From a phage, in assembly GCA_019326865.1 (NCBI GenBank), contig GCA_019326865.1_4101.1: a stretch of DNA of 64,000 bases. The stretch is one strand, 5' to 3'. Position numbers and translations under genes: made by a program. The number at the start of each line of letters is the position of its first letter. Position 1 is the first letter of the stretch. A model generated the notes under the pieces. That model had not been told where the DNA came from and did no database searches. It saw only the letters and a list, made by a program, of their open reading frames with translations. Shown here piece by piece: positions 6,744-56,262 of this stretch.

Positions 6744-6833
6744 GTTTTACATCAGGACAGGGAACGAAATAAGTAACTTCCCGTTAAGTAGCCCAGGAGT
6801 AAGGCATACGAAAAACTCCCCTGATAAAATAGT

Positions 6834-6862
6834 TTGACAATAGTTTTAAGTACTGATAAAAT
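6834..6862 (+). promoter_or_regulatory. sigma70-like promoter
   Basis: TTGACA-17nt-TAAAAT; cassette homologous to 269-330. Confidence 0.5.
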
Positions 6863-6894
6863 AATCACATCAACTACTGATAAGGAAACATAAA

Positions 6895-35411: not shown

Positions 35412-35470
35412 CACCCACCGATTCTTTGTGATATAATCCCTTTATATTAATTTTAAAGGGTTATAACACA

Positions 35471-35947
35471 ATGTCAAACGAACTCACATTCACCAATGCA
35501 CAAAAGATAGCAAAAGACATTATCAGGGTTTATAAATTCCTTGCGAATGTTACTGAAGATTTTTTAATTGATAAAAATAAAGTTATTAAGCGAAATGGAT
35601 ACCTTTCCTTTATGGATGGGTTGCTCTATAGTTCAGATGAGTCAGCTTGTAGTATTAGAGTACTTGATACTGTACCAAGTGGTGATTTTATTTCATACCA
35701 TTTTCCAAGTTCAGATAAGTTCAAATACTACAATAGTATTCTCATAGCAGAAGACTTTGATACGATTGTAATTAACACTGAAGAAGAGTTCTTCCAGTAC
35801 AGTACTGTGTACCCAGAGAGGATTGTTTTCAGTTCAGTGATTTACACTACCCTTAAAAATGAACTAAATTCCGATAGTGATCATTTCTACTTGGACCTGA
35901 ATAATATCGATTGTATTATTGAGTACATGGAGAAAAATGGTTTATGA
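35471..35947 (+). CDS. family B paralog, hypothetical
   Basis: famB TEEEFFQYSTVYPE. Confidence 0.6.
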   Translation: MSNELTFTNAQKIAKDIIRVYKFLANVTEDFLIDKNKVIKRNGYLSFMDGLLYSSDESACSIRVLDTVPSGDFISYHFPSSDKFKYYNSILIAEDFDTIVINTEEEFFQYSTVYPERIVFSSVIYTTLKNELNSDSDHFYLDLNNIDCIIEYMEKNGL

Positions 35948-36447
35948 TTACTACAGAATATGATTACAATAGTGTCCTTGAATTTGCAGAAAATATATAT
36001 CGTATTGCAAAGGAGTTCAGAAGTCCTGAGCCGTTTGGTGGTATGTTCGAATACGATGAGTTTAGTTCATCAAAAGGAAGACTTGCATTTACTAATGGTA
36101 GAGGTAATCAAATCTACACAGAGTACTTTGATGACAATGACTTTCATCACAAAGCCGAATACATTTCATATTGCCCTGGGTCTGATTTGAAGATTCATAT
36201 TGAAAGAGATATAGAAAATGTATTTGTTCCATATACTGATTTAGTCTTCATGTCAGAGGAAATGTACTTTCAGGAATCATTGATTCATGATACAAAAGTA
36301 CTTAATACTATATTATTATATGGTACACTACTTAATCATTACAAATACAATCAAAGATTCTTTTTAGATTTAGTAGTATACCATCAATGTGTGGATTATT
36401 TGAATGCAAAATCAGACAACAATTCAGTACATGACCGATGGTTCTGA
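35944..36447 (+). CDS. family B paralog, hypothetical
   Basis: famB SEEMYFQESLIHDT; ATGA-coupled. Confidence 0.6.
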   Translation: MITTEYDYNSVLEFAENIYRIAKEFRSPEPFGGMFEYDEFSSSKGRLAFTNGRGNQIYTEYFDDNDFHHKAEYISYCPGSDLKIHIERDIENVFVPYTDLVFMSEEMYFQESLIHDTKVLNTILLYGTLLNHYKYNQRFFLDLVVYHQCVDYLNAKSDNNSVHDRWF

Positions 36448-36766
36448 ATACTTTGTTTCAAGATATGTAATAAATCACAACCATTATGTAACCTATATTC
36501 CAGAGTACAATCAATTTTATATCCAGATTTATCAACATAATGGAAAGAGAAATGATATATATTCAGAAATAAAAATCCCTGATTATAGTTCTTTATCAGA
36601 AGAGGAATTGTTTCAGGAGAGCACTATCAGTACTGAAGATGTGTACGAAATAATGGAGTACCAGAAGGTACTTAAACATTTTCATGAAACAAATGATATA
36701 CAAATAGATATTGTTAAACCGTGGTGTTACAATACATATGAGGTAAATTATGTTAGAAATGATTAA
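36431..36766 (+). CDS. family B paralog, hypothetical
   Basis: famB SEEELFQESTISTED; start moved from track 36404 to ATG 36431. Confidence 0.55.
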   Translation: MTDGSEYFVSRYVINHNHYVTYIPEYNQFYIQIYQHNGKRNDIYSEIKIPDYSSLSEEELFQESTISTEDVYEIMEYQKVLKHFHETNDIQIDIVKPWCYNTYEVNYVRND

Positions 36767-37163
36767 AATTATGCAACGCTGTCTTATTGACAAATACGGG
36801 ATATATGGATATCGTTTAAGTGCTCCTATTGACAAAAATAAAACAACCTATGTAAGTTATAATGCTGTACAAGGGTTTGATATATTCATTAGTACTAATT
36901 ATCAAATCAAACAAGCTAAAGATGTGTCTATAATGACCCCTGATGAGTTATTTCAGTACAGCTTAGTTCTTCCTACATGTATCGATTTACAACGTCTAGG
37001 AGCGATACAGAAGGTTTTACGCGAACATAAAGTACAACCCAATAAAGTCACGCACATTCCAGAAACAATCTTCAAAACTATAGAAGTAGAAACCCCTGAT
37101 TATATGTTAAGTGATGATGAATTCTACGAGAAGCACTTCCCTGGTAAAGTTTGGAGAGACTAA
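36750..37163 (+). CDS. family B paralog, hypothetical
   Basis: famB TPDELFQYSLVLPT. Confidence 0.55.
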   Translation: MLEMIKIMQRCLIDKYGIYGYRLSAPIDKNKTTYVSYNAVQGFDIFISTNYQIKQAKDVSIMTPDELFQYSLVLPTCIDLQRLGAIQKVLREHKVQPNKVTHIPETIFKTIEVETPDYMLSDDEFYEKHFPGKVWRD

Positions 37164-44752: not shown

Positions 44753-45288
44753 TGTCTGACCCGATGGTAGCACTGGCACGTACTAAATTACTATTAAAGA
44801 TTGGTGAGATATTCACAGATCTTCTGTGCAATAAAATTGATATTACCGATCTAGATATTAAGCAACCGTGGGAAGTGACTATGTTCTCGGCGTTCCACCG
44901 ATTGTCATATAAAGGTGAAAGTGTTCTTGATTTTAACCCCAAAGCAAAATTCATAGATTATGCCGCGTTGTACCGAGCGTTGCACAAAAATAGTTATTCA
45001 GGTTGTATAACCAATAACTTTGAACGAATTCAAGTTCAAACAGCATCACATGAGTTCAATGATTTACTCTATCCAGAATTTAATCTAACTGAAGAATTAC
45101 TATTTCAGTACTCGTTAATTCTTACAAATCTCGAAACGCTAGAGTACTACAAAGAGTTAGTAGATATTTTTATGAATACACGACTTTCAAAAGATATTGT
45201 GATATTCTGGTATACAGAGCATATTACAGAGGAATTGCTTAATGAATTTCTTCTAAATATGACAGCTATAAAGGAGAAGTTATGTTAG
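44752..45288 (+). CDS. family B paralog, hypothetical
   Basis: famB TEELLFQYSLILTN. Confidence 0.6.
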   Translation: MSDPMVALARTKLLLKIGEIFTDLLCNKIDITDLDIKQPWEVTMFSAFHRLSYKGESVLDFNPKAKFIDYAALYRALHKNSYSGCITNNFERIQVQTASHEFNDLLYPEFNLTEELLFQYSLILTNLETLEYYKELVDIFMNTRLSKDIVIFWYTEHITEELLNEFLLNMTAIKEKLC

Positions 45289-45755
45289 ATATTTTAGGAA
45301 ACATCGATACTGCAAATTATTTTATCCAAGACGCACTATTTAATACACTACAAAAAGGTTTAGAAGTTCGTTACAACGTATATCAAGGTGATGGATATTT
45401 TGTTGATATTCTAGAAACACGTAAAAATACATTTAATGTTAACATTACGACGTTTGGAAGACAGAACATTGCACGAATTTTAGTAAGTAAAGATGAAATA
45501 GTACTGAGATACAGTGCTAAGTTTATGTTGACGTACAAGAAAAAAACAGACATGTTCAGTACTAATTTATTTGATGAACCATTTGACCTTGTAGATATTG
45601 AAGCTACTTTCTTTACTCAAAGTACTATGGTAAAATACACTGATGTTCAATTTTCATCAGACGTTATGTCTGAAACATTACAAATGATCAAGGTATTATT
45701 TTATGCATTTGAGCAATTCAGAGAAGAAAGAAACAAGGTTAACAACCACAGATGA
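45282..45755 (+). CDS. hypothetical protein (157 aa), possible degenerate family B
   Basis: ORF track; degenerate IEATFFTQSTMVKY. Confidence 0.5.
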   Translation: MLDILGNIDTANYFIQDALFNTLQKGLEVRYNVYQGDGYFVDILETRKNTFNVNITTFGRQNIARILVSKDEIVLRYSAKFMLTYKKKTDMFSTNLFDEPFDLVDIEATFFTQSTMVKYTDVQFSSDVMSETLQMIKVLFYAFEQFREERNKVNNHR

Positions 45756-46116
45756 ACTAATAGAGGCGATCACTAAGGAGTCAAAATACCACAAAGGGAT
45801 TCGTCTATATTTTATAGATCTTGGTTCAATGGACGGCATATACATTTATGGTTCACAATCTTTATCTTATGATGTAATGCCAAAAAAATATGTAAAAATC
45901 TTTTTAGGGTCAAATAAGAAAACTTTCTTGACAATTAATGATAAAAACGTTATTATGAATTCTTTGGGTCATGATAAAGTGAAAATTGATCTAAACACGC
46001 TGGATGATATTGATTTTTTTCAATACGAATGTTTAGGTGTTGACTTACATGGAATCAGTAGTGATATGATAAAATCATTAATCAAATATTTCGAAGGCGT
46101 TCATAAATGTATCTAA
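45703..46116 (+). CDS. family B paralog, hypothetical
   Basis: famB DDIDFFQYECLGVD; 53-nt overlap with upstream ORF, start uncertain. Confidence 0.45.
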   Translation: MHLSNSEKKETRLTTTDELIEAITKESKYHKGIRLYFIDLGSMDGIYIYGSQSLSYDVMPKKYVKIFLGSNKKTFLTINDKNVIMNSLGHDKVKIDLNTLDDIDFFQYECLGVDLHGISSDMIKSLIKYFEGVHKCI

Positions 46117-46613
46117 CTAAATCGATGAAAAATTCATTTGATAAAATCAAGAGTTGTCTTGATGGAGAGAATATTACAAGTGTTACACAATCTGCTGACC
46201 AAATTCAATGCAGTTCAAGTGATTGTACTGTTATTTTGGGTTTACATAGTCTGCGTTTGTCAATAGTAAATAATATTGACAACACTGCTATTGTAATCAC
46301 ACCGTGCAATATTCAAAATGAGAATGGTGTATATCTTCATCACATGGGAACCGCATTTTATATTTTCAATACAAACAATACACTCGAAACAATCGTTAAG
46401 GAATATAATACACTTAACATTGATCCTGGTGAGTTATTTCAGATGAGTACGTTGTATTCATGTGATTTTACTGATACCTCACGTATTTTACCATTTTTCT
46501 TGGAAATTTTAAAGAAAATGGATAATTTAAATCGTCAATACAATAAAAAAATGGTTCCAGAAGCTATATTAAATATTACTGATGCTATGGAAAAATATAA
46601 AGCAGTGCCTTAA
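46107..46613 (+). CDS. family B paralog, hypothetical
   Basis: famB PGELFQMSTLYSCD. Confidence 0.55.
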   Translation: MYLTKSMKNSFDKIKSCLDGENITSVTQSADQIQCSSSDCTVILGLHSLRLSIVNNIDNTAIVITPCNIQNENGVYLHHMGTAFYIFNTNNTLETIVKEYNTLNIDPGELFQMSTLYSCDFTDTSRILPFFLEILKKMDNLNRQYNKKMVPEAILNITDAMEKYKAVP

Positions 46614-46656
46614 TAAAAAACGCACATGGAGTGCATATGAAGATCAAGGATAGATC

Positions 46657-47130
46657 ATGGAGATTAAAACTGTTGAAAATGGGAAAATTGATGACATTTT
46701 AGACTTGGACGCATTCAAAGTTCATGATATAATGTTTAATGTGAAGGACATTATTCAATGTCTGTTTTTATGCAGCAAGACTATGCATGATTTTTTTCAC
46801 AACCCGAATACTAATGTTTTTATACTTACAATCAGTACTGAAAACTCGTTTATCATGGGTATGCCCATGAGTACAAATGAACAGTATATTGATTGTGTTA
46901 TTCGCAATAATGATTGTATTACCCCACAATCTGAAGTTCGCAAAAAGAAAAACACTTACACAATCAAAGATGATAAAATCATGATGTGTTGCAGTAAAGG
47001 ATTTATATTGGACAATTTCATCGTCAAAGATAGTTATCATGACTTTAAAATTTCCGAAAATCAATCCAATGTAGTTCTTTATGCTAGTGATATCGAAAGT
47101 TTAACAGTCAAAGATCCTAGTTTGGAGTAA
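46657..47130 (+). CDS. hypothetical protein (157 aa)
   Basis: ORF track; no family motif. Confidence 0.5.
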   Translation: MEIKTVENGKIDDILDLDAFKVHDIMFNVKDIIQCLFLCSKTMHDFFHNPNTNVFILTISTENSFIMGMPMSTNEQYIDCVIRNNDCITPQSEVRKKKNTYTIKDDKIMMCCSKGFILDNFIVKDSYHDFKISENQSNVVLYASDIESLTVKDPSLE

Positions 47131-47132
47131 GT

Positions 47133-47264
47133 ATGGCTAAGAAAGTAAACAATTTCGTACAGAAACACATGAATGAGTTTAACAAGCCTCAGACACATGT
47201 GGATCGTAAAAAAGAAATGAAAAATGGTAAAGTAAAACACAAGTCGAGATTTATTCTCGACTAA
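47133..47264 (+). CDS. hypothetical basic small protein (43 aa)
   Basis: hand-translated MAKKVNNFVQKHMNEF...KHKSRFILD; 3' end lies in terminator stem. Confidence 0.35.
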   Translation: MAKKVNNFVQKHMNEFNKPQTHVDRKKEMKNGKVKHKSRFILD

Positions 47265-47270
47265 TTTTTT
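47243..47270 (+). terminator. rho-independent terminator
   Basis: GTCGAGA-TTTAT-TCTCGAC followed by TAATTTTTT. Confidence 0.6.
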
Positions 47271-47287
47271 GTCTAAATTTTTGAGGA

Positions 47288-48142
47288 TTGTATATGTTGG
47301 ACATTTCAGATTTTCTTAATTTTAAAAAGTATTCAGTACTTGAACATATCAACGAATTTCTGAATTCCCCAACACCATTTGGTATCAGTACATCAGATTC
47401 ATACGATGGATATAGAATCTTCCCATGCAATGACTTTCAAATTTCTGTCAAAAAAGGTTTTACAAAAGAAGTTGCAATTCGTGATGTAGTAATGTATAGC
47501 GATTCTTCTATTTCTTACTGTCATGATGTGAACAATTTTGAATCTCTTTCAACACCTAATTGTTCATACTACAAATCCCATGACACGATGATGTATAAAG
47601 AACAACATATCAATGGTGTTTCGTTCTACAAAACTAGCAGTGATAAATCATATACATCTAGAGATGATTTTGGAAAATACACATGTACTATGCACACGGA
47701 TAATGAAAAAACAAATTACACTCATTCATTCGAGTCCAAATTCCAAGAGAGTGAAGTTTCAAATATCACTATACAAGAACAGGTTTCAGAAGGCATTGTA
47801 TATCGTAGTACTGCATTCTTTCGCATGAAAGATGTTGCCACAGGCAGACCAATGATGTACAATATTGACATATACATGAAAGGTGATATATCAGAAGTAG
47901 TGATTAGTACTGGTTATCGTGAAAAATATACAGTTACAATGGAATCACCAGATGCATCGTTAGTTCACCTCTTTAACAATTTATATACATTCCAATTCGA
48001 ACTTAGTTTAGACTACAATGAATATCAAATATTCGATATATTAAAAAGTAATATTATTAATAAGTTAGAATATTACTACAAGTTAGGTGGTAAGATGTGC
48101 ATAGTTAATACTATGTTACATAACATAAAAGAAACATTATAA
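47288..48142 (+). CDS. hypothetical protein (284 aa), possible family B relative
   Basis: ORF track; C-terminal LYTFQFELSLDYNE. Confidence 0.55.
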   Translation: MYMLDISDFLNFKKYSVLEHINEFLNSPTPFGISTSDSYDGYRIFPCNDFQISVKKGFTKEVAIRDVVMYSDSSISYCHDVNNFESLSTPNCSYYKSHDTMMYKEQHINGVSFYKTSSDKSYTSRDDFGKYTCTMHTDNEKTNYTHSFESKFQESEVSNITIQEQVSEGIVYRSTAFFRMKDVATGRPMMYNIDIYMKGDISEVVISTGYREKYTVTMESPDASLVHLFNNLYTFQFELSLDYNEYQIFDILKSNIINKLEYYYKLGGKMCIVNTMLHNIKETL

Positions 48143-48158
48143 ATCTGGAGGATTTGGT

Positions 48159-48452
48159 ATGGATACTAAATTCAAAATTATTTTTAAAACTAAGCCGTAT
48201 ATTCCACATACAGCAGAACGTTTTATACCACATGATGCAGAGGAAATTATTCATCAAGATGGTACAAAGTTATATCTAGTGCCATGTTCATATGAACGTG
48301 CAGTAGAAATGTTACTCATGAATTCTAAATTATGTACAAACAAGTACATTAGTTACTTATATAATGAACATATTTTAGATTTTAATGATGAAAATATGTT
48401 TATTCTGGCAATTGAAGATTTTAATAATTGGTACAACATTATTAAAATCTGA
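48159..48452 (+). CDS. hypothetical protein (97 aa)
   Basis: ORF track; SD GGAGGA. Confidence 0.55.
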   Translation: MDTKFKIIFKTKPYIPHTAERFIPHDAEEIIHQDGTKLYLVPCSYERAVEMLLMNSKLCTNKYISYLYNEHILDFNDENMFILAIEDFNNWYNIIKI

Positions 48453-48522
48453 TAAAATATTGTGAACATATTAAATCTTTATGATATAATGTTCACATAT
48501 TTTTTTGATAATGGAGATATAG

Positions 48523-48909
48523 ATGAATACAAGTTCAATCCTAAAAGCAATTGGTGGTGTTTTACTTATTGAAGTGAAAGGTGAACCAAAACTGTGCTGT
48601 TTGGAAGATATGAAGAATACAAAACACTTCAGTACTGGTCAGATTTTTAATGCCATTCGTGTTCTAAATGATAAATCAATCGCTGATTATGGTAAAGTTT
48701 GGCCTGTATATCAAAACGCAGATGGTGATATCAGTTCTGACTGGAAAACCATTGAAGCAGTCCGACAAAGTTGTGATAGCGACTGGGACTTCATTGTAGA
48801 AGTATGTGACCAACTTCAAGAAGATGTACCAGAAATTGTGGAACGAAAGGAAGTTCTGGCAAATCTAGAAAAGTTCCGTCATGGAACACTACCATATGAT
48901 ACAATCTAA
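48523..48909 (+). CDS. hypothetical protein (128 aa)
   Basis: ORF track; SD TGGAGA; palindrome TGTGAACAT..ATGTTCACA upstream. Confidence 0.55.
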   Translation: MNTSSILKAIGGVLLIEVKGEPKLCCLEDMKNTKHFSTGQIFNAIRVLNDKSIADYGKVWPVYQNADGDISSDWKTIEAVRQSCDSDWDFIVEVCDQLQEDVPEIVERKEVLANLEKFRHGTLPYDTI

Positions 48910-48959
48910 TCTACTTATTAAAAAATAGCTAGTTAACATTATATAAAAAGGAATTTAAA

Positions 48960-49265
48960 ATGGAAGATAATGGAATGAAATTTGATATGTTTGAGGGTGT
49001 ACCTGAGTTTGATTTTAACAAACTAGAAAATGGTGAAGAGTCAGAACTCGTTAGTGTTACACTTAAAGCAGATTCTAAGAAGAAATATTCATCAGCAGTA
49101 CGTTCACGTTCACAAGAAGAATACGAAACATTTATTGAAAGTATTCATTATGAAACATTCCATCATGCAGATGGAACTCCATATGAAGTACGTGTAACAG
49201 TACTGAAGCCTGAAGTAAATCCAATGGAAAATCTACGTCCTGTTTACTGCTGGGCAAGTCACTAA
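48960..49265 (+). CDS. hypothetical protein (101 aa)
   Basis: ORF track; SD AAAGGAAT; followed by terminator. Confidence 0.55.
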   Translation: MEDNGMKFDMFEGVPEFDFNKLENGEESELVSVTLKADSKKKYSSAVRSRSQEEYETFIESIHYETFHHADGTPYEVRVTVLKPEVNPMENLRPVYCWASH

Positions 49266-49273
49266 TAAACCAA

Positions 49274-49306
49274 AGGACGGGATTTGTTATTTCGTCCTTT
49301 TTTTTG
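49274..49306 (+). terminator. rho-independent terminator
   Basis: AGGACG-14nt loop-CGTCCT followed by TTTTTTTT. Confidence 0.6.
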
Positions 49307-49317
49307 TCTGGAGATGT

Positions 49318-50172
49318 ATGAAACTTTATCTAATCGTTGACTACAATAAGGATTATGCTGGTAACTTCACCGAAGATTCGGATGGATATTGCACATCGAC
49401 TAATGTCAATGTACGTAGCAGTAGTGCTCATGAACATGAATCTTGTAAAAATCTAAAAGATTTTATCACATACCGAGCATTTGAAAAGAACTTCTGCCGC
49501 AGTAGATATTCTAAGTTTGAGTACCCATTAATTGATGTTCCTGATGAATTGATGTTCCAGCTAATGTTAACTGGAGTTCAAGATTATGATTATATTGCTT
49601 ATAATCACATAACAAAGAAGATTTACATTGGAACATCAGTACACGATACTTCCATGTATGCATCATGCCCAGATGATCGAATGAAGCATAGAAATTCATA
49701 CTATAGTGGATCAGTTGGTTCAAATAATTCATCAAATAAAAATTCATTCTTTGAGTACGTGTATGATTACCATCACGAGAAAAAAGAACGTGAAGATTAC
49801 TGTATAGAGATTGATAGTACTAATGGATATGAAGACGTAAAAGAAGCTCTTATGCCATACATTATAGAAAAATACTACAAAGATTTTCAGTACTGTAGTA
49901 ATTTTCTAATCAGAAATTCTATTCAAATCGGTCGTCAATCCACTGCATACGCTATGTACTACAGTGATTCTCCAGTTGTAGCAGGAAATGAAAGGGGTGA
50001 TATCCTACCAATTCCACGTGAAGATATGACATTCATTTTTACATCTTTTATTGAGGATGATGAATTGTACGTTAAAAATAAGCATCGTTTCATGCCAAGT
50101 AAAATTGAGATTATTAGAAGCATCAGTGTTGATATATTAACCAATTTTACTGAAAAAACTGAATATAACTGA
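49318..50172 (+). CDS. hypothetical protein (284 aa), possible family B relative
   Basis: ORF track; N-proximal VPDELMFQLMLTGVQD. Confidence 0.55.
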   Translation: MKLYLIVDYNKDYAGNFTEDSDGYCTSTNVNVRSSSAHEHESCKNLKDFITYRAFEKNFCRSRYSKFEYPLIDVPDELMFQLMLTGVQDYDYIAYNHITKKIYIGTSVHDTSMYASCPDDRMKHRNSYYSGSVGSNNSSNKNSFFEYVYDYHHEKKEREDYCIEIDSTNGYEDVKEALMPYIIEKYYKDFQYCSNFLIRNSIQIGRQSTAYAMYYSDSPVVAGNERGDILPIPREDMTFIFTSFIEDDELYVKNKHRFMPSKIEIIRSISVDILTNFTEKTEYN

Positions 50173-50202
50173 GACAAAATAGAAGTTAATGATATAATGT
50201 GA

Positions 50203-50231
50203 GGTGACAGTATATACTGTCACCTTTTTTT
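50203..50231 (+). terminator. rho-independent terminator
   Basis: GGTGACAGTATATACTGTCACC palindrome followed by TTTTTTT. Confidence 0.75.
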
Positions 50232-50849
50232 AATCCTGAAAGGTTCCTATAAGGAAATGATTAAAAGCCTAATCCACTCGAAAATGTAGAGGGTAGATGA
50301 GTAGTCCTTTCAGTACGAACAGCAGATGAAACCCGTTAGATGATGGCATAGTTTGAACCACTCACGGCAATGCGGCTGTATAAAGAACTCCAATAGGATA
50401 AAGAGAGTTCCTAGATAGACATATAAGGATCGCACCTTACCAATTATCTAAGGGAGATTTCATAAGAAATATGCGGTCGGAATTATACAATATAGTTGCG
50501 TCCAAATTTTGTGAAATCAAATACAAGTACTGGTCATATGGTATTTGTATTATGTGTCGGGATGTTTAAGACCGACGACCGTTGCTACAAGAACCGCGAT
50601 AGAGAGAAACAGAGCAACCCGCTTTCGTCTCGTAAGAGAATTCGTGATATGAACTATGTGAAGGCCACCAGCGTCAAACTTTTTTGTTCTTTCCCCTGCG
50701 GGGGGATGAAATATGCTCAAGCAAACCTCGTCAATATTAATTAAAAGACTTTATAATACTTGTAGAATTGTACATGCACCGCATGGAGAATTCTACTGAT
50801 GTTGATGTAATCAACATCACGTATATTCATTGATGTTTCCATAGGAATA

Positions 50850-51395
50850 ATGATGGCATTTATTAAAAAAGAAAAAACTATTACTTATAAAACTTTGAAT
50901 TTTGATGATTGTATTAATCAATCACAGGACGAAAATATTTTTACTGGATATGTGGTTATTAAAGAAAAAGGATGCATTTCTTATATAAAGGAATTGCAAA
51001 ATGGCATTGAAGTCACTTCAGTTAAATTACTTCCTACACAAAAACCAACAATATCAAAAGCCCAGTACGGTAATTATTTCGAGGAAAGATACAGTAATAA
51101 TTTAATAAGTGTTAAAGCTCATATTGTAAAAGGAGAACTAGAAGGAGAATATAGAAAATTCAACCCACAAGGAAAATGTGTTTGGGTTAAATACTACAAT
51201 TCAGGTGTTGATATAACATCTGAAATTATAGAGTTCTTAGGGTTGTCATGTACACCTGAAACTCTTCATGACTACAAATTTAATACTGAAGAAGAGTTTA
51301 ATCTGATGATGCGTTATGGATCACATTTTAAATTTTTATATGAATATAACGTTGACAGTAGTATTTTTGATAAAATAGTACATAACTGTCTATAA
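50850..51395 (+). CDS. hypothetical protein (181 aa), possible MORN/YwqK-like repeats
   Basis: ORF track; repeat-like GEYRKFNPQGKCVWVKYYNSG (weak). Confidence 0.5.
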   Translation: MMAFIKKEKTITYKTLNFDDCINQSQDENIFTGYVVIKEKGCISYIKELQNGIEVTSVKLLPTQKPTISKAQYGNYFEERYSNNLISVKAHIVKGELEGEYRKFNPQGKCVWVKYYNSGVDITSEIIEFLGLSCTPETLHDYKFNTEEEFNLMMRYGSHFKFLYEYNVDSSIFDKIVHNCL

Positions 51396-51411
51396 CAAAA
51401 GGATTTATATA

Positions 51412-51933
51412 ATGTCGAAGAAGGATACTTCGAATAAGCACTCAGTTCATTTCAGTACTGGAAAAGATAACTGGACAACCCCAAAAGATTTTTTTGAAGA
51501 TTTAGATGAGTTATGGGGATTTACACTTGATGCTGCTTGTGTAGATGAGACTGCATTGTGTGATAATTTTTTCACTCCAGAAGATGATTCACTGTCACAG
51601 GATTGGGGAAATAATATAGTTTGGTTGAATCCACCATATAGTGACTTAAAAACATGGTTATCTAAAGCTGTAGATGCATATAATAACGGAGCAACTGTAG
51701 TTATTCTTGTACCCTCAAGAACCGATACAATTGCTTTTCAGGATTATGCTGCTAAAATATGTGATTGTATTTGTTTTATTAAGGGAAGATTGCGATTTGG
51801 TATACCAGAAGAACCCGATAAGAAAACTGATTCAGCACCATTTCCTTCGTGTCTGATAGTTCTGGATAAGTACTTAACCACTGCTAAAATCAATTGTCTT
51901 AAATCTCTCGGATTGGTGATGAAGAATTTATGA
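51412..51933 (+). CDS. phage Dam-type DNA N6-adenine methyltransferase
   Basis: catalytic NPPY in WLNPPYSD; size and N-terminal DNWTTPKDFFEDL layout as in small phage Dam MTases (recalled, not searched). Confidence 0.65.
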   Translation: MSKKDTSNKHSVHFSTGKDNWTTPKDFFEDLDELWGFTLDAACVDETALCDNFFTPEDDSLSQDWGNNIVWLNPPYSDLKTWLSKAVDAYNNGATVVILVPSRTDTIAFQDYAAKICDCICFIKGRLRFGIPEEPDKKTDSAPFPSCLIVLDKYLTTAKINCLKSLGLVMKNL

Positions 51934-52463
51934 AAGAAACATGTATATTATCATTTATGAGATGTAACCCAGTCCACAATGGACATGGTTTAGTTTTTGA
52001 AAAGGCCAAAACATTACAAGAACAGTACAATGCTGATTTAAAAATTTATCTAAGCACTAGTACTGACAATATAAAAAACCCACTACCACCTGAACTAAAA
52101 ATGTATTATACAGAGGGATTCTATCCTTCAGTGCAAGAGAACATCTACACAGAGGACAATCTATTTGATATAATGAGAGAACTGGATGGAAAGTACTTAG
52201 ATGTTCTCTTCATATGTGGTTCTGACCGTATTGATTCTTTTCAGAAAACCCTTGACACTTACAATGGGAAGTTGTATAATTTTTGTAATATAAAAGTAAT
52301 TCAAGCAGGTATTGACCGCCAATCAAGTCGATATAGCTCAACACAAATGCGTAAGTTTGCCAAAAATGAAGATTTTGATAGTTTTCGTGAGTTTTTGCCT
52401 GGAAATGACGAGAACTTAAAAATTCAATTATTTGAAGATGTTATAAAATACATGAGGAAATAA
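51930..52463 (+). CDS. HxGH nucleotidyltransferase, NMN adenylyltransferase-like
   Basis: N-terminal RCNPVHNGH (H-x-G-H) and SSTQMRKF (S-x-T-x-x-R) as in short NMNAT/cytidylyltransferases; ATGA-coupled to methyltransferase. Confidence 0.55.
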   Translation: MKETCILSFMRCNPVHNGHGLVFEKAKTLQEQYNADLKIYLSTSTDNIKNPLPPELKMYYTEGFYPSVQENIYTEDNLFDIMRELDGKYLDVLFICGSDRIDSFQKTLDTYNGKLYNFCNIKVIQAGIDRQSSRYSSTQMRKFAKNEDFDSFREFLPGNDENLKIQLFEDVIKYMRK

Positions 52464-52465
52464 TT

Positions 52466-52759
52466 ATGTCAGTACTGTTCAAAACTAATCCAGTACTTTG
52501 GGAACAAAATGAACAATCAGGATTTCGTTCCATCCATGTTGAATACAAAGGTAATACAGTAGTTGCAATTATTGCTAACAAAACTCTAGGAAAATGGACC
52601 GCACAGGTTGTTCCTATGGGCTATTCTTATACATCTGATGAGGTTCAATTTTTAGCTGAACTTTATCGTCAAGTTCCTTTTATTATTAATGTGTTAGAAG
52701 GCAATGATACATTATCACATGAAGATGTGATTGATTTTCTTGGAAACTTACATGTGTGA
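52466..52759 (+). CDS. hypothetical protein (97 aa)
   Basis: ORF track. Confidence 0.5.
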   Translation: MSVLFKTNPVLWEQNEQSGFRSIHVEYKGNTVVAIIANKTLGKWTAQVVPMGYSYTSDEVQFLAELYRQVPFIINVLEGNDTLSHEDVIDFLGNLHV

Positions 52760-53039
52760 TGAAATAAATCTTACAGGATATTTTTTACAAGAATCTATGA
52801 TCAAATTTAGTGAACATTTCCCAGTACTGGATGGTATCGAAATGTGGCATGTCAAACCACTGTTTCACACTTTCAGTAAAGAGCACAAAATGTTATTGAC
52901 TGAAGCGAGTAAATCAAATAACATATGTGAAATCAAAATTGGTGTAAATGTCTATAAAGGGATGGTTATCTTTTTTGACAATAACAGCAACTACTTTTAT
53001 ATTGTTAAGGAGCAATACGTTGACAAATACAAATACTAA
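52752..53039 (+). CDS. hypothetical protein (95 aa)
   Basis: track ORF 52731..53039; start moved to ATG 52752 overlapping upstream stop. Confidence 0.45.
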   Translation: MCDEINLTGYFLQESMIKFSEHFPVLDGIEMWHVKPLFHTFSKEHKMLLTEASKSNNICEIKIGVNVYKGMVIFFDNNSNYFYIVKEQYVDKYKY

Positions 53040-53628
53040 TACATACTTCCGTTATCTTCGTTTAGGTCTTTCCCTTCGACCAATCCGTGGAAAGTGTGAT
53101 TCACTCGCAGACCTTGACTATGCATATGCATTACATCATGAGGGTGTACAGTATGTATTGGGTGATTATGGTGAATTTGAAGAAACAAATGACAGTACTG
53201 GAATTAATGCTGGTGTAGAAAATCTCAACAACATTGCAAACAGTTCGCGTCATGATATTGTGTTACAGATTCAAAACTTTATTGAGCAACACACTGGTAA
53301 ACGTGTTTGGTGTTATGTCGGAACTGATGCACAAATGTCTATTTCATTCGGTAATGATGACGGATATGTCGCACAGCTAATTATGGATTTTGAATCTGAA
53401 GAGAAGTTTTTAGAATTTAAAGATAAAATCATCAAATCACTCGTTGATATGGGTATCCCAGAAGATAAAATGCCAGAAGTTCAAAACATTGATGAATTTG
53501 TTTTGATTCCATCTGATGAGAAATACGATGCTATGTTTTCTGCTCTTAATATTCCAGGAGTCATTGTGGAGTACTTTGATGATGGTGATGATAGCATCTA
53601 TATCGATTTAGATGACGATGATGAATAA
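52948..53628 (+). CDS. hypothetical acidic protein, start unresolved
   Basis: track ORF with no in-frame ATG for about 130 codons; C-terminus DDGDDSIYIDLDDDDE; possible frameshift with 52752..53039. Confidence 0.4.
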   Translation: MSIKGWLSFLTITATTFILLRSNTLTNTNTNTYFRYLRLGLSLRPIRGKCDSLADLDYAYALHHEGVQYVLGDYGEFEETNDSTGINAGVENLNNIANSSRHDIVLQIQNFIEQHTGKRVWCYVGTDAQMSISFGNDDGYVAQLIMDFESEEKFLEFKDKIIKSLVDMGIPEDKMPEVQNIDEFVLIPSDEKYDAMFSALNIPGVIVEYFDDGDDSIYIDLDDDDE

Positions 53629-53633
53629 TATAT

Positions 53634-53661
53634 AGCCCGACATAAGTTCGGGCTATTTTTG
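53634..53661 (+). terminator. rho-independent terminator
   Basis: AGCCCGA-CATAAGT-TCGGGCT followed by ATTTTTG. Confidence 0.7.
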
Positions 53662-53672
53662 TAAGGGGAAAT

Positions 53673-53948
53673 ATGAATTATAAATTTCTACAATATACAT
53701 ACACAATATTATTTGATTTACATCACAATGGACGATATATCAACACAATACGAGAAAACACATTTACTCATATGTTATGGATTGATTACTTAGAAACGAT
53801 TCGTGCATATTTTGTTAATACTGAGATAATCATTCGTGGTAAAAAACAGAAGATTCAACATGTTAATAGTTATGGTGGTAAATTAACTCTAACATTTACC
53901 GATAATAATACTAATGAAATGTGTTGTATCGAGTTGGTGAACATATGA
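53673..53948 (+). CDS. family C paralog (about 90 aa), hypothetical
   Basis: N-terminus MNYKFLQYTYTILFDL; first of 5 tandem copies. Confidence 0.6.
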   Translation: MNYKFLQYTYTILFDLHHNGRYINTIRENTFTHMLWIDYLETIRAYFVNTEIIIRGKKQKIQHVNSYGGKLTLTFTDNNTNEMCCIELVNI

Positions 53949-54211
53949 ATTATAAAGATTTCCAATTAACATATAAGATTATTCGCAATCTAGCACACAG
54001 CAATAATAGCCCTAGTCTAGAAGACACATGCACAGAAATGATCCATACGATTCGTGCAAAGATTGAAGAAAATTTCAGTACTGTTATTATTAATGATGAC
54101 CATGCAGAATTTTCTGATATAATCATTAGACGTGATGGTAAAGTTGAGGTTCAGTACTACACTGATTTTGGATTTACAAGTGTACCGTTGGAGATATTCC
54201 CTTGGGATTAA
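53945..54211 (+). CDS. family C paralog, hypothetical
   Basis: MNYKDFQLTYKIIRNL; start moved from track 53921 to ATGA-coupled ATG. Confidence 0.55.
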   Translation: MNYKDFQLTYKIIRNLAHSNNSPSLEDTCTEMIHTIRAKIEENFSTVIINDDHAEFSDIIIRRDGKVEVQYYTDFGFTSVPLEIFPWD

Positions 54212-54513
54212 ATTTAAATGATATACAATTCACTTATAAGGTACTATATGATTTGTATGATGCATACCTTGTTAGTAACAAAATAGGTTCACATAACCCA
54301 ACCAAAGAACAATCATTTATTGATTTATATATTGAGTACTTAGATTCTATTGAAAACTATCTCAAAAAGAATTACAGTACTTTTATCGATGGAAATGATA
54401 CATTCGATTTCTATGGTGTGCAATCATATGATGGTATAATCCATGTTCAATTTCAGGAAAGAACCGATAGGGAATTTATCGAAATTAAAGTTGTGAAGTT
54501 GGTGAATTTATAA
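54202..54513 (+). CDS. family C paralog, hypothetical
   Basis: LNDIQFTYKVLYDL; track start is TTG, no in-frame ATG nearby. Confidence 0.5.
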   Translation: MGLNLNDIQFTYKVLYDLYDAYLVSNKIGSHNPTKEQSFIDLYIEYLDSIENYLKKNYSTFIDGNDTFDFYGVQSYDGIIHVQFQERTDREFIEIKVVKLVNL

Positions 54514-54523
54514 GAGGTTACAT

Positions 54524-54835
54524 ATGTTATTAAATGATATACAATTTACATACAAATTTTTGTATATCCAATTCGCAACGGTTGATGCTGGTGAATATAT
54601 CTACAGTGAAGTTTATCGTTCGATATGGATAAAGTTTTTAGATGAATTACATGAATATTACCATGATTTGCGTATAGTTCGTAATAATAAAATATACAAA
54701 TTCCGCGATATTGTTAGTCATAGCGGTAAGCTACGATTGGAATTAAGTACTGATAGTGATGTTGATTGGATTGGTGTAAATTTACTGGAGTTGGAGAATG
54801 AAAAGCAACTTAAAGGAAATACAAGTATTTTATAA
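54524..54835 (+). CDS. family C paralog, hypothetical
   Basis: MLLNDIQFTYKFLYIQF. Confidence 0.6.
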   Translation: MLLNDIQFTYKFLYIQFATVDAGEYIYSEVYRSIWIKFLDELHEYYHDLRIVRNNKIYKFRDIVSHSGKLRLELSTDSDVDWIGVNLLELENEKQLKGNTSIL

Positions 54836-55082
54836 ATTCTTATACTTGTCATATGTTAAAGATGAGTACTATGAAAGTGTGTATTATTTTTTATGGCAAC
54901 ATTACCGTACTATAGTAAGAGATTTATATCTAGGAAAATCTATCATATACAATGGTGAAAAATGTACATGTACGGATGTAGTTAGTTTTAATGGTTCTTT
55001 AACACTGTGTTTCAGATGCGATAATAATAGTGGGTCATTTTCATTAAACGTATATCAGTTAGAAGGAATAAATTTTGAATAA
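54798..55082 (+). CDS. family C paralog, hypothetical
   Basis: LKEIQVFYKFLYLSY. Confidence 0.55.
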   Translation: MKSNLKEIQVFYKFLYLSYVKDEYYESVYYFLWQHYRTIVRDLYLGKSIIYNGEKCTCTDVVSFNGSLTLCFRCDNNSGSFSLNVYQLEGINFE

Positions 55083-55275
55083 GTGTCCATATTGTAACAG
55101 TACTCAATTAGCTCGTTTCCGTTTAGATTCAGACTGGGCAACTGGTGCTGGGGATTTCTTCCCTATTAATGATGATGCGGAATACACCGAAGAACAACAC
55201 AAAGATTTTGATAAATCATGGCGACCGGACATTGAGTGCATTTATTGCCTTAATTGTGAGCGTGTCCATGACTAA
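55075..55275 (+). CDS. zinc-ribbon protein (66 aa)
   Basis: CPYC near N-terminus and CIYCLNC near C-terminus (paired CxxC). Confidence 0.55.
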   Translation: MNKCPYCNSTQLARFRLDSDWATGAGDFFPINDDAEYTEEQHKDFDKSWRPDIECIYCLNCERVHD

Positions 55276-55531
55276 AGCTGAACTAATAGTTCATACATAT
55301 AAAATGATATCAAGTACTGAGTTATCATATAGTGAAGATAATCCGGTACTGGATTATTTTGTGGAATTATTGAAAGACCATTATATTGGTAAATCACTGA
55401 ATCTTAATAATATTAATTTCACTGTAAAGGATGTAGCACCAGGTAAAAACGTACTAATAGTATGTGTTACTTCATCTGATAACCCAGTATACCCAATATC
55501 AATAACTTTTGAGATATTAGGGGATGTATGA
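55268..55531 (+). CDS. hypothetical protein (87 aa)
   Basis: track ORF 55145..55531; start moved to ATG 55268 (MTKAEL) just before upstream stop. Confidence 0.5.
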   Translation: MTKAELIVHTYKMISSTELSYSEDNPVLDYFVELLKDHYIGKSLNLNNINFTVKDVAPGKNVLIVCVTSSDNPVYPISITFEILGDV

Positions 55532-55818
55532 ATATCATTTTAATACAAAAAACATATACTCTACTAATGAAAGAATATGCTAATACTTATGATGAAAGGT
55601 GTAGTGCAATTCATAATATGTATGAATTTATTACTCAAGAGTACAGGGATTATATATATGCTGCGTTAGTGGGTAGATATTTCAGTACTAGAAAATACCC
55701 AAAACTTCAAATAGTTGATGTTTCTTTTTATTTCAATGGTCATATTACTATTCATAGTTTAGACCAAGATTCAACAACGTACTTAAACTTTTCATTTGAT
55801 GAGGTAACATTTTTATGA
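55528..55818 (+). CDS. hypothetical protein (96 aa), family C-like
   Basis: MNIILIQKTYTLLMKEY resembles family C N-termini; ATGA-coupled. Confidence 0.5.
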   Translation: MNIILIQKTYTLLMKEYANTYDERCSAIHNMYEFITQEYRDYIYAALVGRYFSTRKYPKLQIVDVSFYFNGHITIHSLDQDSTTYLNFSFDEVTFL

Positions 55819-55997
55819 GAACAGTATTTTTTATCTGGAGTCTTTTTTCATTGGCAGTACTGACAGTTTCAGGTGCTTATTCATTTTTAACAATGAACAC
55901 ATGGTATGTTAATTTACTATTCCCAATTGTTGGTGTTGGTTTAGGATTTAGTTTACATAGTGTATGTAAGGATTACAATGACAAATACAACAAATGA
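55815..55997 (+). CDS. small membrane protein (60 aa)
   Basis: two hydrophobic helices FFIWSLFSLAVLTVSGA and LLFPIVGVGLGFSL. Confidence 0.5.
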   Translation: MRTVFFIWSLFSLAVLTVSGAYSFLTMNTWYVNLLFPIVGVGLGFSLHSVCKDYNDKYNK

Positions 55998-56262
55998 AGT
56001 TCTTATTGCTGAAACAATGAAGATGATTTACTTTATTACTACGGCACAGGATTTGTCTTATCCAGTGAAATCGTTACTTAGGTCAATGTATCTTGATATT
56101 GTAAAAGAATATTATAAATCTAAACACAGAAGCATTATTAGTGTTTATCGTGATTATGAAAGGATTCGTATTTTATTCTGGAACAAGAATCGAGTACGTT
56201 CTGAATGTGATCTAGTAGATTTTAAATTAGAGAATCTTTATTCTTACAAAGCGGGACAATAG
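55978..56262 (+). CDS. hypothetical protein (94 aa)
   Basis: track ORF 55960..56262; start moved to ATG 55978. Confidence 0.45.
   Translation: MTNTTNEVLIAETMKMIYFITTAQDLSYPVKSLLRSMYLDIVKEYYKSKHRSIISVYRDYERIRILFWNKNRVRSECDLVDFKLENLYSYKAGQ

Follow-up and report, generated by a model that had tools for sequence, protein, structure and literature searches.

What occupies a stretch of some 0.6 kb of phage DNA that shows no convincing gene on either strand? The question arises at positions 50232-50849 of a 64,000-nucleotide stretch (hereafter the window; GCA_019326865.1, contig GCA_019326865.1_4101.1), where the original prediction, made from the sequence alone, described an ORF-poor, GC-richer island with several hairpins lying between a strong terminator and the next gene. 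It offered as candidates a structured non-coding RNA, an intron or gene remnant, or an origin or packaging region. The analysis described here supports the first of them: with high confidence, the gap is the gene for a large, intricately folded RNA of about 615 nt (roughly 50205-50820, + strand), of a family that matches no entry in Rfam 15, no GenBank or RefSeq annotation and no paper that could be searched, although the transcript itself is inferred from sequence.

A probable transcription unit in an apparently empty gap

The observation itself holds. The longest ORF in the gap is an 82-codon TTG frame at 50496..50744, and the GC content of 50232-50849 is 0.388, against 0.331 for the whole window and about 0.28-0.31 in the immediate flanks. 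All the hairpins that had been described are in the sequence: GTTGCT/AGCAAC at 50581-86/50613-18, CCCC/GGGG at 50693-96/50701-04, the palindrome TGATGTTGAT/ATCAACATCA at 50797-806/50810-819, and GTCGG/CCGAC, which is real but sits at 50556-60/50572-76, a few bases to the right of the 50547-50570 originally given. Further hairpins had been missed, at 50762-77/50781-96 (16 nt), 50520-30/50541-51 and 50385-90/50405-10. This is more than chance, since the + strand folds with z = -3.6 against dinucleotide shuffles and, more tellingly, these stems are kept by compensatory substitutions in homologs. One correction is necessary: a conserved promoter lies upstream of the hairpin taken as the terminator, so that this hairpin is inside the feature rather than its left border. 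The elements of the unit are as follows.

50171-50198, + strand: promoter, with a -35-like GAGACA (50171-76), a 16-nt spacer, TG (50190-91) and a -10 TATAAT (50193-98), overlapping the stop codon (50170-72) of the upstream ORF.
50201-50231, + strand: 5' hairpin (GAGGTGACAGTAT/ATACTGTCACCTT, 11 pairs) plus U-run, the intrinsic terminator of the upstream 284-aa ORF and, because it lies after the promoter, probably also the 5' end of the RNA.
50232-50261, + strand: leader, with a conserved AAUCCUG, a variable hairpin (UUCCU/AGGAA, 50244-48/50252-56) and an A-rich linker.
50262-50740, + strand: conserved core, with helices at 50269-79/50289-96, 50301-03/14-16, 50319-23/75-79, 50333-36/64-67, 50385-90/50405-10, 50424-28/35-39, 50456-59/50515-18, 50520-31/50540-51, 50556-60/72-76, 50595-99/50642-46, 50602-06/22-26, 50629-31/36-38 and 50693-96/50701-04; its invariant single-stranded blocks include GAUGAG, GAAACCCGU, CGGCAAUGCGGC, GAUAGACAUAU, AAGGGA, GACCGU, ACCCGCUU and two CnCGUCA repeats.
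50520-50653, + strand: pseudoknot 1, in which the loop of hairpin 50520-51 (GUCAUAU, 50533-39) pairs with AUAUGAA (50647-53), stacking on helix 50595-99/50642-46.
50581-50626, + strand: pseudoknot 2, in which GUUGC (50581-85) pairs with GCAAC (50614-18) in the loop of hairpin GAGAG/CUUUC (50602-06/50622-26); this is the GTTGCT/AGCAAC repeat noticed originally.
50762-50796, + strand: long 3' hairpin, GUAGAAUU..CAUGC ACC GCAUG..AAUUCUAC.
50797-50819, + strand: 3' terminal hairpin (the palindrome), just after which the RNA probably ends; no U-run follows.

The promoter scores 10/12 in a sigma-70 scan, with a TG extension. The same arrangement, TG(A/G)(A/G)AC, about 17 nt, and TGnTATA(A/C)T, precedes the other homologs, including copies in bacterial islands, and it matches the "TGAAACG -35" promoter class described for phage CBB (PMC5259590). 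The 5' hairpin, recovered both by a terminator scan and as an inverted repeat, covaries in the syntenic orthologs of Kaldavass, Yen9-04, 7t3 and CBB, whereas the other paralogs have only a short 5' hairpin at this place. It must be noted that in the lineage of this copy a terminator-like hairpin plus U-run lies between promoter and core, and that many paralogs carry another hairpin plus U6 insert inside the conserved region, which is odd for one continuous stable RNA. In the leader, AAYYCUG is conserved and a hairpin of unrelated sequence occupies the same place in homologs (alignment columns 124-170).

At the 3' side, most homologs have a long hairpin with outer stem GAAUU/AAUUC in the position of 50762-50796; in many of them its apical loop carries AACGnAGUGA, which the window copy lacks. 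RNAalifold on the 3' domain did not recover this hairpin on the seed alignment, probably through misalignment. It did recover the terminal hairpin: on 19 homologs, the window copy not being in that alignment, it predicts 9 pairs, all 9 with changes on both sides, and per-sequence folds agree. The palindrome of the window is position-equivalent to this hairpin.

Covariation, strand and the lack of coding capacity

Is the predicted fold maintained by selection? RNAalifold on the full gappy alignment recovered only part of the structure, so helices were found by a covariation scan instead, giving a 480-nt core with at least 16 helices and two pseudoknots. On 46 homologs under 95% identical, 95.4% of 3531 cells pair, against 76.1% in 500 shuffles (0/500 reach it) and 38-44% when partners are slid. 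Of 80 pairs, 58 change on both sides, there are 668 compensatory cells against 179 expected, and the covariation score is 0.535, against 0.185 shuffled and 0.06-0.11 slid. In pseudoknot 1, 7 of 7 pairs change on both sides and 99.7% of cells pair, each paralog of phage 121Q having its own sequence for this helix; for pseudoknot 2 (helices 12 and 14 of the count) 100% of cells pair, with 3 and 2 pairs changing on both sides. Every tested helix is present in the window sequence. These helices were picked from the same sequences on which they were counted, and related sequences inflate shuffle statistics; an unbiased scan of all column pairs, which controls the selection only partly, finds 7 helices with at least 3 compensatory pairs, against 0-1 in 12 column-order shuffles. 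The + strand is indicated by frequent G-U pairs alternating with G-C or A-U (for example UG:38/CG:8 and GU:28/AU:18), by fewer helices on the reverse strand (5 against 7) and by the orientation of the promoter.

The sequence is also under stronger purifying selection than its protein-coding neighbours. The core is 99.4% identical to 121Q and G17, while the flanking ORFs are 90.5% and 92.3% identical, and the gap alone is 97% identical to 121Q, against 94.5% for 50100-51000.

A decayed protein gene, a set of unannotated small ORFs, or a group I or II intron or its remnant could be invoked, since the 82-codon ORF exists and several GenBank records annotate small "hypothetical proteins" over the region. 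Nevertheless, 0 of 45 homologs keep any open frame across that ORF, indel lengths modulo 3 are 118/545/161, mostly not multiples of three, and mismatches by codon position are 1125/1211/1263, without codon periodicity. Annotated ORFs differ in strand and position between records. Pfam and PHROG searches of all seven ORFs of 30 aa or more in the gap found no family above noise, the best being DUF5771 (E = 0.039) and phrog_37483 (E = 0.0019, over 19 residues of an antisense ORF). The upstream ORF ends with its own stop codon and terminator, the downstream ORF has its own start at 50850, the two are not halves of one gene, and paralogs lie in intergenic gaps. No intron model matches at E<=10. This reading is refuted as far as sequence analysis allows.

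Among the 4227 models of Rfam 15, including GOLLD, ROOL, OLE, raiA, HEARO, RNase P, tmRNA, 6S, group I and II introns and riboswitches, none matches at gathering score in the whole window. At E<=10 the region 50100-50950 gives only weak, unrelated matches at the terminator, the leader or the 3' flank, with bits far below the cut-offs, and there is no match over the core in 8 other phage loci or 8 bacterial loci. ARAGORN finds no tRNA or tmRNA in the window. The original interpretation was right in part: a structured RNA is what the evidence shows, the intron or gene remnant is rejected, and an origin or packaging region is neither supported nor fully excluded, although a DNA-only role does not explain G-U-tolerant, strand-specific covariation and pseudoknots. 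What makes the region notable, a multi-copy family shared with bacterial islands and absent from Rfam, could not be seen from the sequence alone.

Copies in jumbo phages and in bacterial islands

The family can be given a working definition: promoter TGRRAC-N17-TGnTATAMT; blocks CCUGAUCC..GAUGAG..GAAACCCGU..CGGCAAUGCGGC..GAUAGACAUAU..AAGGGA..GACCGUUG..AGAAAC.G....ACCCGCUU..CnCGUCA..GGGGGGAU..CnCGUCA; two pseudoknots; and two 3' hairpins. The window sequence fits it, 50243-50774 matching the family profile at nhmmer E = 1e-129 to 1e-138, and nhmmer separated members from non-members by more than 60 orders of magnitude. BLAST found no second copy in the window, and nhmmer confirms a single one.

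Every RaK2-like jumbo phage examined (genomes of about 350 kb) has 4-5 diverged, co-oriented paralogs, while RaK2-type Klebsiella phages show one BLAST match per record. In the phage collection the family is found only in 71 records, all in the 310-386 kb size class among those listed, mostly with 4-5 places per record. The plasmid collection has no match. With a 25-nt degenerate pattern, which replaced a looser one (GAAACNGNNNNACCCGCTT) giving mostly chance hits in IMG/VR, 38 IMG/VR stretches match, and 62 metagenome stretches match as well. A 2-kb ORF-free stretch of 121Q at 135-137 kb, suspected of holding further copies, is a different, repeat-rich region. The two 284-aa ORFs upstream are not detectably similar.

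Does the RNA act on a neighbouring gene? It lies directly upstream of a co-oriented gene (50850-51395) and begins with a terminator-like hairpin, as a cis-acting leader, attenuator or riboswitch might. However, the four 121Q copies lie in four different gene contexts, each an unannotated gap with the same promoter, paralogs precede unrelated genes, one 121Q copy lies between two genes on the opposite strand, and in islands the next gene is convergent. No riboswitch family matches, and a 600-nt leader with two 3' hairpins would be unprecedented. We consider this possibility very unlikely.

Full-length homologs with the same promoter also lie, as single copies near integrase genes, in genomic islands of Serratia, Enterobacter, Buttiauxella, Silvania and E. 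coli, the host range of these phages. Eight species-representative bacterial genomes carry copies (nhmmer E 1e-85 to 1e-98), as do 2 of 5426 E. coli genomes. In several of these islands a CI-like S24 repressor and a Ner-like protein sit beside the RNA, and some island proteins hit candidate-defence profiles (PDC-S73, E = 5.5e-24; PDC-M01B, E = 3.4e-7). Island copies fall in at least two separate places among the phage paralog lineages, implying repeated transfer.

This distribution raises the possibility, a special case of a trans-acting RNA, of a conflict RNA that one side would use as sensor, antitoxin or assembly factor and the other would copy as mimic or decoy; alternatively, the islands would be satellites pirating a helper-phage RNA. 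The precedent for one RNA family occurring both in host defence loci and in phage genomes is the ToxI antitoxin RNA, mimicked by phage-encoded pseudo-ToxI; here too, homologous RNAs sit in islands with candidate defence genes and in virulent phages. ToxI, however, is an array of 36-nt repeats cut by its toxin, whereas here there is a single 600-nt fold, Tandem Repeats Finder finds nothing inside the RNA, and no toxin-like neighbour was seen in the phage or island contexts examined. No effector is consistently linked either, integrases are of two unrelated families and the cargo varies, so the RNA may be mere hitch-hiking cargo. Moreover, four to five conserved paralogs per phage, across the RaK2-like genera fetched here, suggest a core phage function rather than an escape device. 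On balance this reading remains doubtful, although it is not excluded.

The nature of the RNA and its closest counterparts

Our preferred explanation, which we hold to be likely, is a free-standing gene for a non-coding RNA. What the comparisons establish is its own conserved promoter, its conserved multi-helix architecture with at least two pseudoknots and two 3' hairpins, its purifying selection, and its existence as 4-5 anciently diverged, co-oriented paralogs in the RaK2-like jumbo phages fetched here and as single copies near integrase genes in enterobacterial islands. The remainder is inference: that an RNA polymerase recognising a -35-like TGAGAC/TGAAAC box and an extended -10 transcribes it, that the transcript, whose ends and stability are likewise deduced from sequence, survives as a stable folded particle capped by hairpins at both ends, and that it then acts in trans, alone or with proteins, as a scaffold, decoy or ribozyme. 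It would not act through any neighbouring gene, because the neighbours differ at every copy, and its many invariant unpaired blocks are presumably tertiary contacts or a binding or active site. That it is a real structured RNA gene of a new family seems very likely; that it acts in trans as a folded RNA or RNP is only somewhat more likely than not, no protein partner being conserved next to it and nothing identifying a target. No transcriptome of these genera was found in the literature searched.

The closest counterparts are GOLLD and ROOL, large ornate RNAs of phages and prophages of no known function. They too are large (about 0.6 kb here), highly structured with pseudoknots and long invariant unpaired stretches, carried by phages and by integrated elements of the hosts, and stand alone without a conserved protein partner; GOLLD, ROOL and OLE were recently shown to form RNA-only homo-oligomers (PMC12286853). 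There is, however, no match to the GOLLD and ROOL models even at E<=10. GOLLD and ROOL typically lie beside tRNA genes, whereas the window has none and the 121Q tRNA cluster, at 72-78 kb, is away from all four copies. The hosts are Enterobacterales jumbo myoviruses rather than Lactobacillales, rumen or lake sequences, and there are 4-5 diverged paralogs per genome. Jumbo phage PA5oct, a distant relative of the 121Q/RaK2 group, expresses ORF-free transcripts of 236-619 nt (ncRNA001-004), two of them at 1-5% of phage reads (PMC7318152), and could have supplied expression evidence, but the family profile detects no homology in the regions holding ncRNA001, 002 and 004 (best E = 3.5 and 8.1).

Dispersed, co-oriented, promoter-bearing copies would also suit replication origins. 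In this view each promoter-driven transcript would fold, form a persistent RNA-DNA hybrid and be processed into a leading-strand primer, as in ColE1 RNA II and the T4 oriF/oriG R-loops, and islands would carry a copy so that the replication machinery of the infecting jumbo phage amplifies them. The copies are dispersed around a genome of about 350 kb (121Q: 90, 193, 247 and 327 kb), all on one strand in every genome checked, each with a promoter of the class found in CBB mainly in front of DNA-synthesis genes (PMC5259590). These phages encode T4-like replication and recombination proteins and RNase H; the T4 origins are likewise several dispersed promoter-containing loci per genome, and the length of about 600 nt and a conserved G-run near the 3' part recall RNA II, a folded transcript of about 0.5-0.6 kb. 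Presence in small integrase-bearing islands would fit origin piracy. Nevertheless, two pseudoknots, 58 covarying pairs and long invariant unpaired blocks are far more structure than any known origin transcript needs, and the RNA is far more conserved and knotted than origin transcripts are known to be. Without a systematic search, no AT-rich unwinding element, iterons or antisense regulator of the RNA I type were seen; no homology to these transcripts was seen, the Rfam scans returning no match over the core; and the next gene starts about 30 nt after the 3' hairpin. An origin or primer role, for which the evidence is only circumstantial, is unlikely, although not excluded.

Literature searches on these phages, their non-coding RNAs, structured RNAs of jumbo phages and the transcriptomes of the four genera, as well as for exact sequence strings, found no description of this RNA, subscription-only papers lying outside their reach, and neither the CBB paper nor the "ten thousand candidate structured RNAs in phages" paper was found to describe it. 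Dozens of GenBank records leave the region blank or cover it with spurious "hypothetical proteins", which a covariance model would correct. Large, highly structured bacterial and phage RNAs are rare: apart from rRNA, RNase P, tmRNA and the introns there is only a handful of orphans, such as OLE, GOLLD, ROOL and raiA, each of which has opened a line of work in RNA structure or catalysis. This candidate comes with a comparative data set of more than 46 diverse sequences and occurs in cultured coliphages (121Q, PBECO4, phAPEC6, G17, UE-S1 and others) that infect laboratory E. coli, so that genetics, RNA-seq and cryo-EM are immediately feasible.

A bolder possibility, unlikely on present evidence, is that of a new class of large catalytic or self-assembling RNA, a core component of the RaK2-like jumbo-phage life cycle. 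It could be an RNA particle or an origin-priming ribozyme made from 4-5 paralogs, each with its own pseudoknot "address", which small integrative islands of the host would have repeatedly captured, with its phage-type promoter, to sense, pirate or block infection. It would then be the first large structured RNA shown to sit at the centre of a phage-satellite or phage-defence interaction. Short of that, the 4-5 paralogs per genome and the copies in host islands suggest a function under conflict or piracy, a biology not yet described for any large RNA.

A conserved and repeated gap

Megablast of 45000-56000 and blastn of 50100-51000 place the window in the Asteriusvirus group of jumbo coliphages, with identities of 97.2% to UE-S1 and about 93% to G17, Sharanji, phAPEC6 and 121Q. 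Nearly all of its ORFs lie on the + strand (156 against 7). The stretch 50173-50849 has no ORF longer than an 82-codon TTG frame at 50496..50744, and its GC content is 0.388, against 0.331 for the window and 0.25-0.31 in the adjoining 200-nt windows. A hairpin plus T-run at 50201-50231 is the only terminator-like site in 50050-50950. The inverted repeats that had been pointed out are present, namely GTTGCT/AGCAAC at 50581-86/50613-18, TGATGTTGAT/ATCAACATCA at 50797-806/50810-819 and CCCC/GGGG at 50693-96/50701-04, as well as GTCGG/CCGAC, although the latter lies at 50556-60/50572-76, slightly to the right of the place proposed. Several others had been missed: a 16-nt pair at 50762-77/50781-96, an 11-nt pair at 50520-30/50541-51 and GAACTC/GAGTTC at 50385-90/50405-10. 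Furthermore, the + strand folds better than its dinucleotide shuffles (z = -3.6, against -3.0 for the minus strand). The original prediction of a GC-richer, hairpin-bearing gap devoid of a convincing ORF is therefore confirmed as an observation.

The gap is the best-conserved DNA in the neighbourhood. A BLAST search with the gap alone found 71 phage records, with identities of 96-97% in most close Asteriusvirus relatives and of 86-95% in the more divergent ones, whereas the slightly larger segment that includes the gene ends was only 94.5% identical to 121Q. Measured piece by piece against 121Q and G17, the core 50262-50740 differs at 3 of 479 positions (99.4% identity), while the adjoining genes are 90.5% and 92.3% identical and other nearby genes 89-97%. 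About 480 nt (query 26-513) are still 66-76% identical in phages of Erwinia, Yersinia, Salmonella, Serratia, Pectobacterium (CBB), Cronobacter (GAP32), Klebsiella aerogenes and "Xanthomonas" (XaC1), where the region is usually unannotated or covered by small ORFs that differ in strand and place between records. In Kaldavass, Yen9-04, 7t3, CBB and RaK2 the element is syntenic, lying between a hypothetical gene of about 280 aa and the hypothetical gene, Dam methylase and cytidylyltransferase. In the window, two ORFs of exactly 284 aa (47288-48142 and 49318-50172) lie 1.2 kb apart on this side, but they are not detectably similar (BLASTP E = 2) and the equal length is coincidence. In UE-S1, the closest relative, the copy (positions 93-826 of L238, the UE-S1 stretch, aligned to window 50173-50852) is identical to that of the window apart from a few substitutions, a 1-nt shorter T-run and a 55-nt tandem duplication of about window 50323-50377, whose extra unit carries the variants typical of other paralogs (GATGTGGGC..AACCCC); this is either recombination between paralogs or an assembly artefact.

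Each record showed 4-5 separate matching places, except for the RaK2-type Klebsiella phages, which showed one. By tiling the 121Q genome and applying conserved-block patterns and an nhmmer profile, we located four copies, all on the + strand, at 90.3-90.8 kb (after a sigma-factor gene), 192.8-193.3 kb (the ortholog of the window copy), 247.5-248.1 kb and 326.7-327.2 kb, the last one between two minus-strand genes. Each fills a gap of 0.6-0.8 kb that is otherwise unannotated, apart from one 156-nt minus-strand ORF call in the third. A 2-kb ORF-free stretch of the same genome (135.2-137.2 kb of the 121Q record, or 35195-37160 of its retrieved stretch L004) is packed with CAGTACTGA / AGTACT repeats and GC-rich hairpins, but it is unrelated to the RNA family and may be a regulatory, origin or terminal-repeat-boundary region. 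The window itself holds one copy. Pattern scans of IMG/VR, and later of metagenomes, which give lower bounds on the distribution, returned 38 and 62 stretches, mostly from contigs of 350-380 kb, and in every genome with several recovered copies all copies are co-oriented. Clustering shows that paralog lineages are shared between genera, one cluster holding one copy each from GAP32, CBB, BF, Yen9-04 and two uncultured genomes, so that the duplications predate those genera. RaK2 has a diverged homolog at the syntenic locus (E = 2e-36 and 8e-17 for two segments). An origin or primer RNA, the main rival to the reading developed below, would explain these dispersed, co-oriented, promoter-bearing copies, as well as possible piracy by islands, but not the amount of structure, and we regard it as unlikely.

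Covariation, coding tests and anatomy of the unit

Forty-six copies less than 95% identical were aligned (alignment A4), and an unbiased scan of all column pairs found runs of stacked, mostly canonical pairs carrying compensatory changes. In the resulting 16 helices (80 pairs), 95.4% of cells form standard pairs, against 76.1% in shuffles (0 of 500 reach it) and 38-44% when the 3′ partners are slid by 1-3 columns; 58 pairs change on both sides, 668 compensatory cells are counted against 179 expected, and the covariation score is 0.535, against 0.185 shuffled and 0.06-0.11 slid. The shuffle statistics are inflated by relatedness, and helices in the variable regions and in the 5′ and 3′ domains are less well aligned. 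Since the helices were chosen on the same sequences, a selection control was run: the same scan on 12 column-order shuffles of the alignment finds 0-1 helices with at least 3 compensatory pairs, against 7 in the real alignment. Two helices cross others and are therefore pseudoknots. In the first, the loop GUCAUAU (50533-39) of hairpin 50520-51 pairs with AUAUGAA (50647-53), all 7 pairs covarying and 99.7% of cells pairing; in the second, GUUGC (50581-85) pairs with GCAAC (50614-18) inside the loop of hairpin 50602-06/50622-26, with 100% of cells paired. Each paralog has its own sequence for the first pseudoknot, those of 121Q being UUGCAU/AUGCAA, GUCAUAU/AUAUGAA, UCGAAU/AUUCGA and UUGUAU/AUACAA.

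Frequent G-U pairs alternating with G-C or A-U, the smaller number of helices found on the reverse strand and the orientation of the promoter all assign the RNA to the + strand. In turn, the coding tests are all negative: no homolog keeps any open frame across the segment aligned to the 82-codon ORF, indel lengths mod 3 are 118/545/161, mismatches are spread evenly over codon positions, and Pfam and PHROGs give nothing above noise. One PHROG of unknown function, phrog_37483, weakly matches 19 residues of an antisense 56-aa ORF (50553-50720, - strand), and several GenBank records place small hypothetical proteins on either strand here; these are probably families of spurious ORF calls laid over this RNA. 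Judging from the sequence, this is an RNA, and not a protein gene or a DNA-only site. The unit in the window, on the + strand, comprises the following parts.

50171-50198, promoter: GAGACA (50171-76), a 16-nt spacer, TG, then TATAAT (50193-98)
50201-50231, 5′ hairpin plus U-run
50232-50261, leader with a conserved AAUCCUG and a variable hairpin
50262-50740, core, with invariant unpaired blocks between the helices
50762-50796, long hairpin of the 3′ domain
50797-50819, terminal hairpin of the 3′ domain, the palindrome of the original prediction
50850, start codon of the next gene

A TG(A/G)(A/G)AC box, about 17 nt, then TGnTATA(A/C)T precedes the other copies, including the bacterial ones. This is the "TGAAACG -35" promoter class reported for CBB mainly upstream of DNA-synthesis genes (PMC5259590), and it differs from the perfect TTGACA-16-TATAAT promoters of the early-type region of the window (2500-7000). 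The latter has five of them (first hexamers at 3422, 4031, 4817, 5245 and 5866), together with two near-identical terminator hairpins (2847-2874 and 6573-6602) that contain a TTGACT -35 in the stem and are followed by GCTATTAT, so that terminator and promoter overlap. Other stretches of 280-480 nt (2671-3002, 4071-4354 and 6417-6894) lack an ORF of 55 codons or more, and one of them has a GC content of 0.405, but no Rfam family matches them.

In the lineage of this copy the 5′ hairpin covaries and, judging from the sequence, terminates the upstream gene; as the conserved extended -10 promoter lies immediately upstream of it, transcripts started there must read through it, which holds only in this paralog lineage. 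At the other end, folds of most homologs show two hairpins at the equivalent positions despite unrelated sequences. RNAalifold on 19 homologs, among which the window copy is not included, predicts the terminal hairpin with compensatory changes at all 9 pairs, whereas the long hairpin was not recovered. The whole gap is thus one RNA gene of about 615 nt, a length inferred from sequence alone. Moreover, peripheral modules come and go between paralogs. One is a GUACAAUAUAG-UCCGUCCAAAAUUU module that can sit at either of two alternative positions; another, carried by many paralogs inside the conserved 3′ part after CAGCGUCAAG (A4 columns 730-765; for example L013 and L011, the fourth and third 121Q copies), is an optional hairpin plus U6 insert, whose stem is in many of them built from the AGTACT palindrome.

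Copies in bacterial islands

An exact-pattern scan of one genome per bacterial species returned 8 loci, where by our estimate about 0.3 would be expected by chance for that pattern, and all 8 hold full-length copies (nhmmer E = 1e-85 to 1e-98). They come from Serratia fonticola (complete chromosome), Serratia sp., Silvania hatchlandensis, Enterobacter chinensis, Buttiauxella, two Enterobacteriaceae assemblies, and a 2.8-kb contig binned as Clostridium (L171, DPOH01000171.1, a "Clostridium sp." MAG) that clusters with the Buttiauxella, Enterobacter and other enterobacterial island copies and is thus probably mis-binned.

In five of these loci the order is host gene, then integrase, then the RNA on the same strand, the integrase being a large serine recombinase in three loci and a tyrosine integrase in two. 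In four of the five a convergent CI-like S24 repressor follows, then a Ner-like HTH protein and a 286-aa ORF; three loci continue with an LprI-like protein and two end with a resolvase. The Serratia fonticola locus differs, since a serine recombinase and two ParB/RepB proteins are followed by the RNA on the opposite strand. Two of 5426 complete E. coli genomes also carry a copy, which in strain LR-29-1 lies in an island of about 11 kb between ffs and ybaA, and PGAP annotates nothing there. These small integrative islands (bacterial loci L165-L173) share the RNA but swap the integrase family and use different insertion sites, next to rimO, tilS/rof, ppdD-hofB, dapE and ffs, and some of their proteins hit the candidate-defence profiles PDC-S73 and PDC-M01B.

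The E. coli island copy clusters with one phage paralog lineage and the other island copies cluster elsewhere, near the XaC1 copy, which implies at least two phage-island transfers. Searching the phage collection with an island copy returns 71 records with the same genus counts as the search with the gap, all listed records being jumbo-sized and none a temperate phage, while the plasmid collection returns nothing.

Relation to described RNAs and inferred mode of action

No Rfam 15 family matches at gathering score anywhere in the window, and at E<=10 nothing matches over the core in the window, in 8 other phage copies or in 8 bacterial copies; ARAGORN finds no tRNA or tmRNA. Literature searches, including exact sequence strings, found no description of this RNA, with the reservation that papers behind subscription lay outside their reach. 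The genome papers on CBB (PMC5259590) and PA5oct do not mention it, and the RNA-seq-defined lncRNAs ncRNA001, 002 and 004 of PA5oct are not detectably homologous. In kind, it most resembles the orphan large RNAs GOLLD and ROOL, which are phage- and prophage-borne, ornate, of unknown function and now known to self-assemble (PMC12286853). Nevertheless, it matches neither model and has no tRNA neighbourhood, and it also differs in host range and in being multi-copy.

Of the readings put forward in the original prediction (a structured non-coding RNA, an intron or gene remnant, or an origin or packaging region) only the first is upheld, so that its interpretation was supported in part; an intron and a gene remnant are essentially excluded, and so is cis-regulation. 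That this is a real RNA gene of a new family appears to us very likely. The analysis itself establishes a promoter-equipped, independently conserved unit whose RNA fold is under selection, which is independent of neighbouring genes, has ancient paralogs and has been exchanged between phages and islands. Beyond this, and in the absence of expression data, we infer a stable transcript capped by hairpins at both ends, a view that leaves unexplained the position of the promoter upstream of a terminator-like hairpin in this lineage, the internal hairpin plus U-run of many paralogs, the lack of a U-run after the 3′ hairpin and the sequence of the first pseudoknot proper to each paralog. A conflict, mimicry or satellite role, a special case of a trans-acting RNA suggested by the island copies, remains a tentative possibility. 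In the reading that we consider somewhat more likely than not, the transcript would act in trans as a folded RNA or RNP, with the invariant unpaired blocks as its functional surface.
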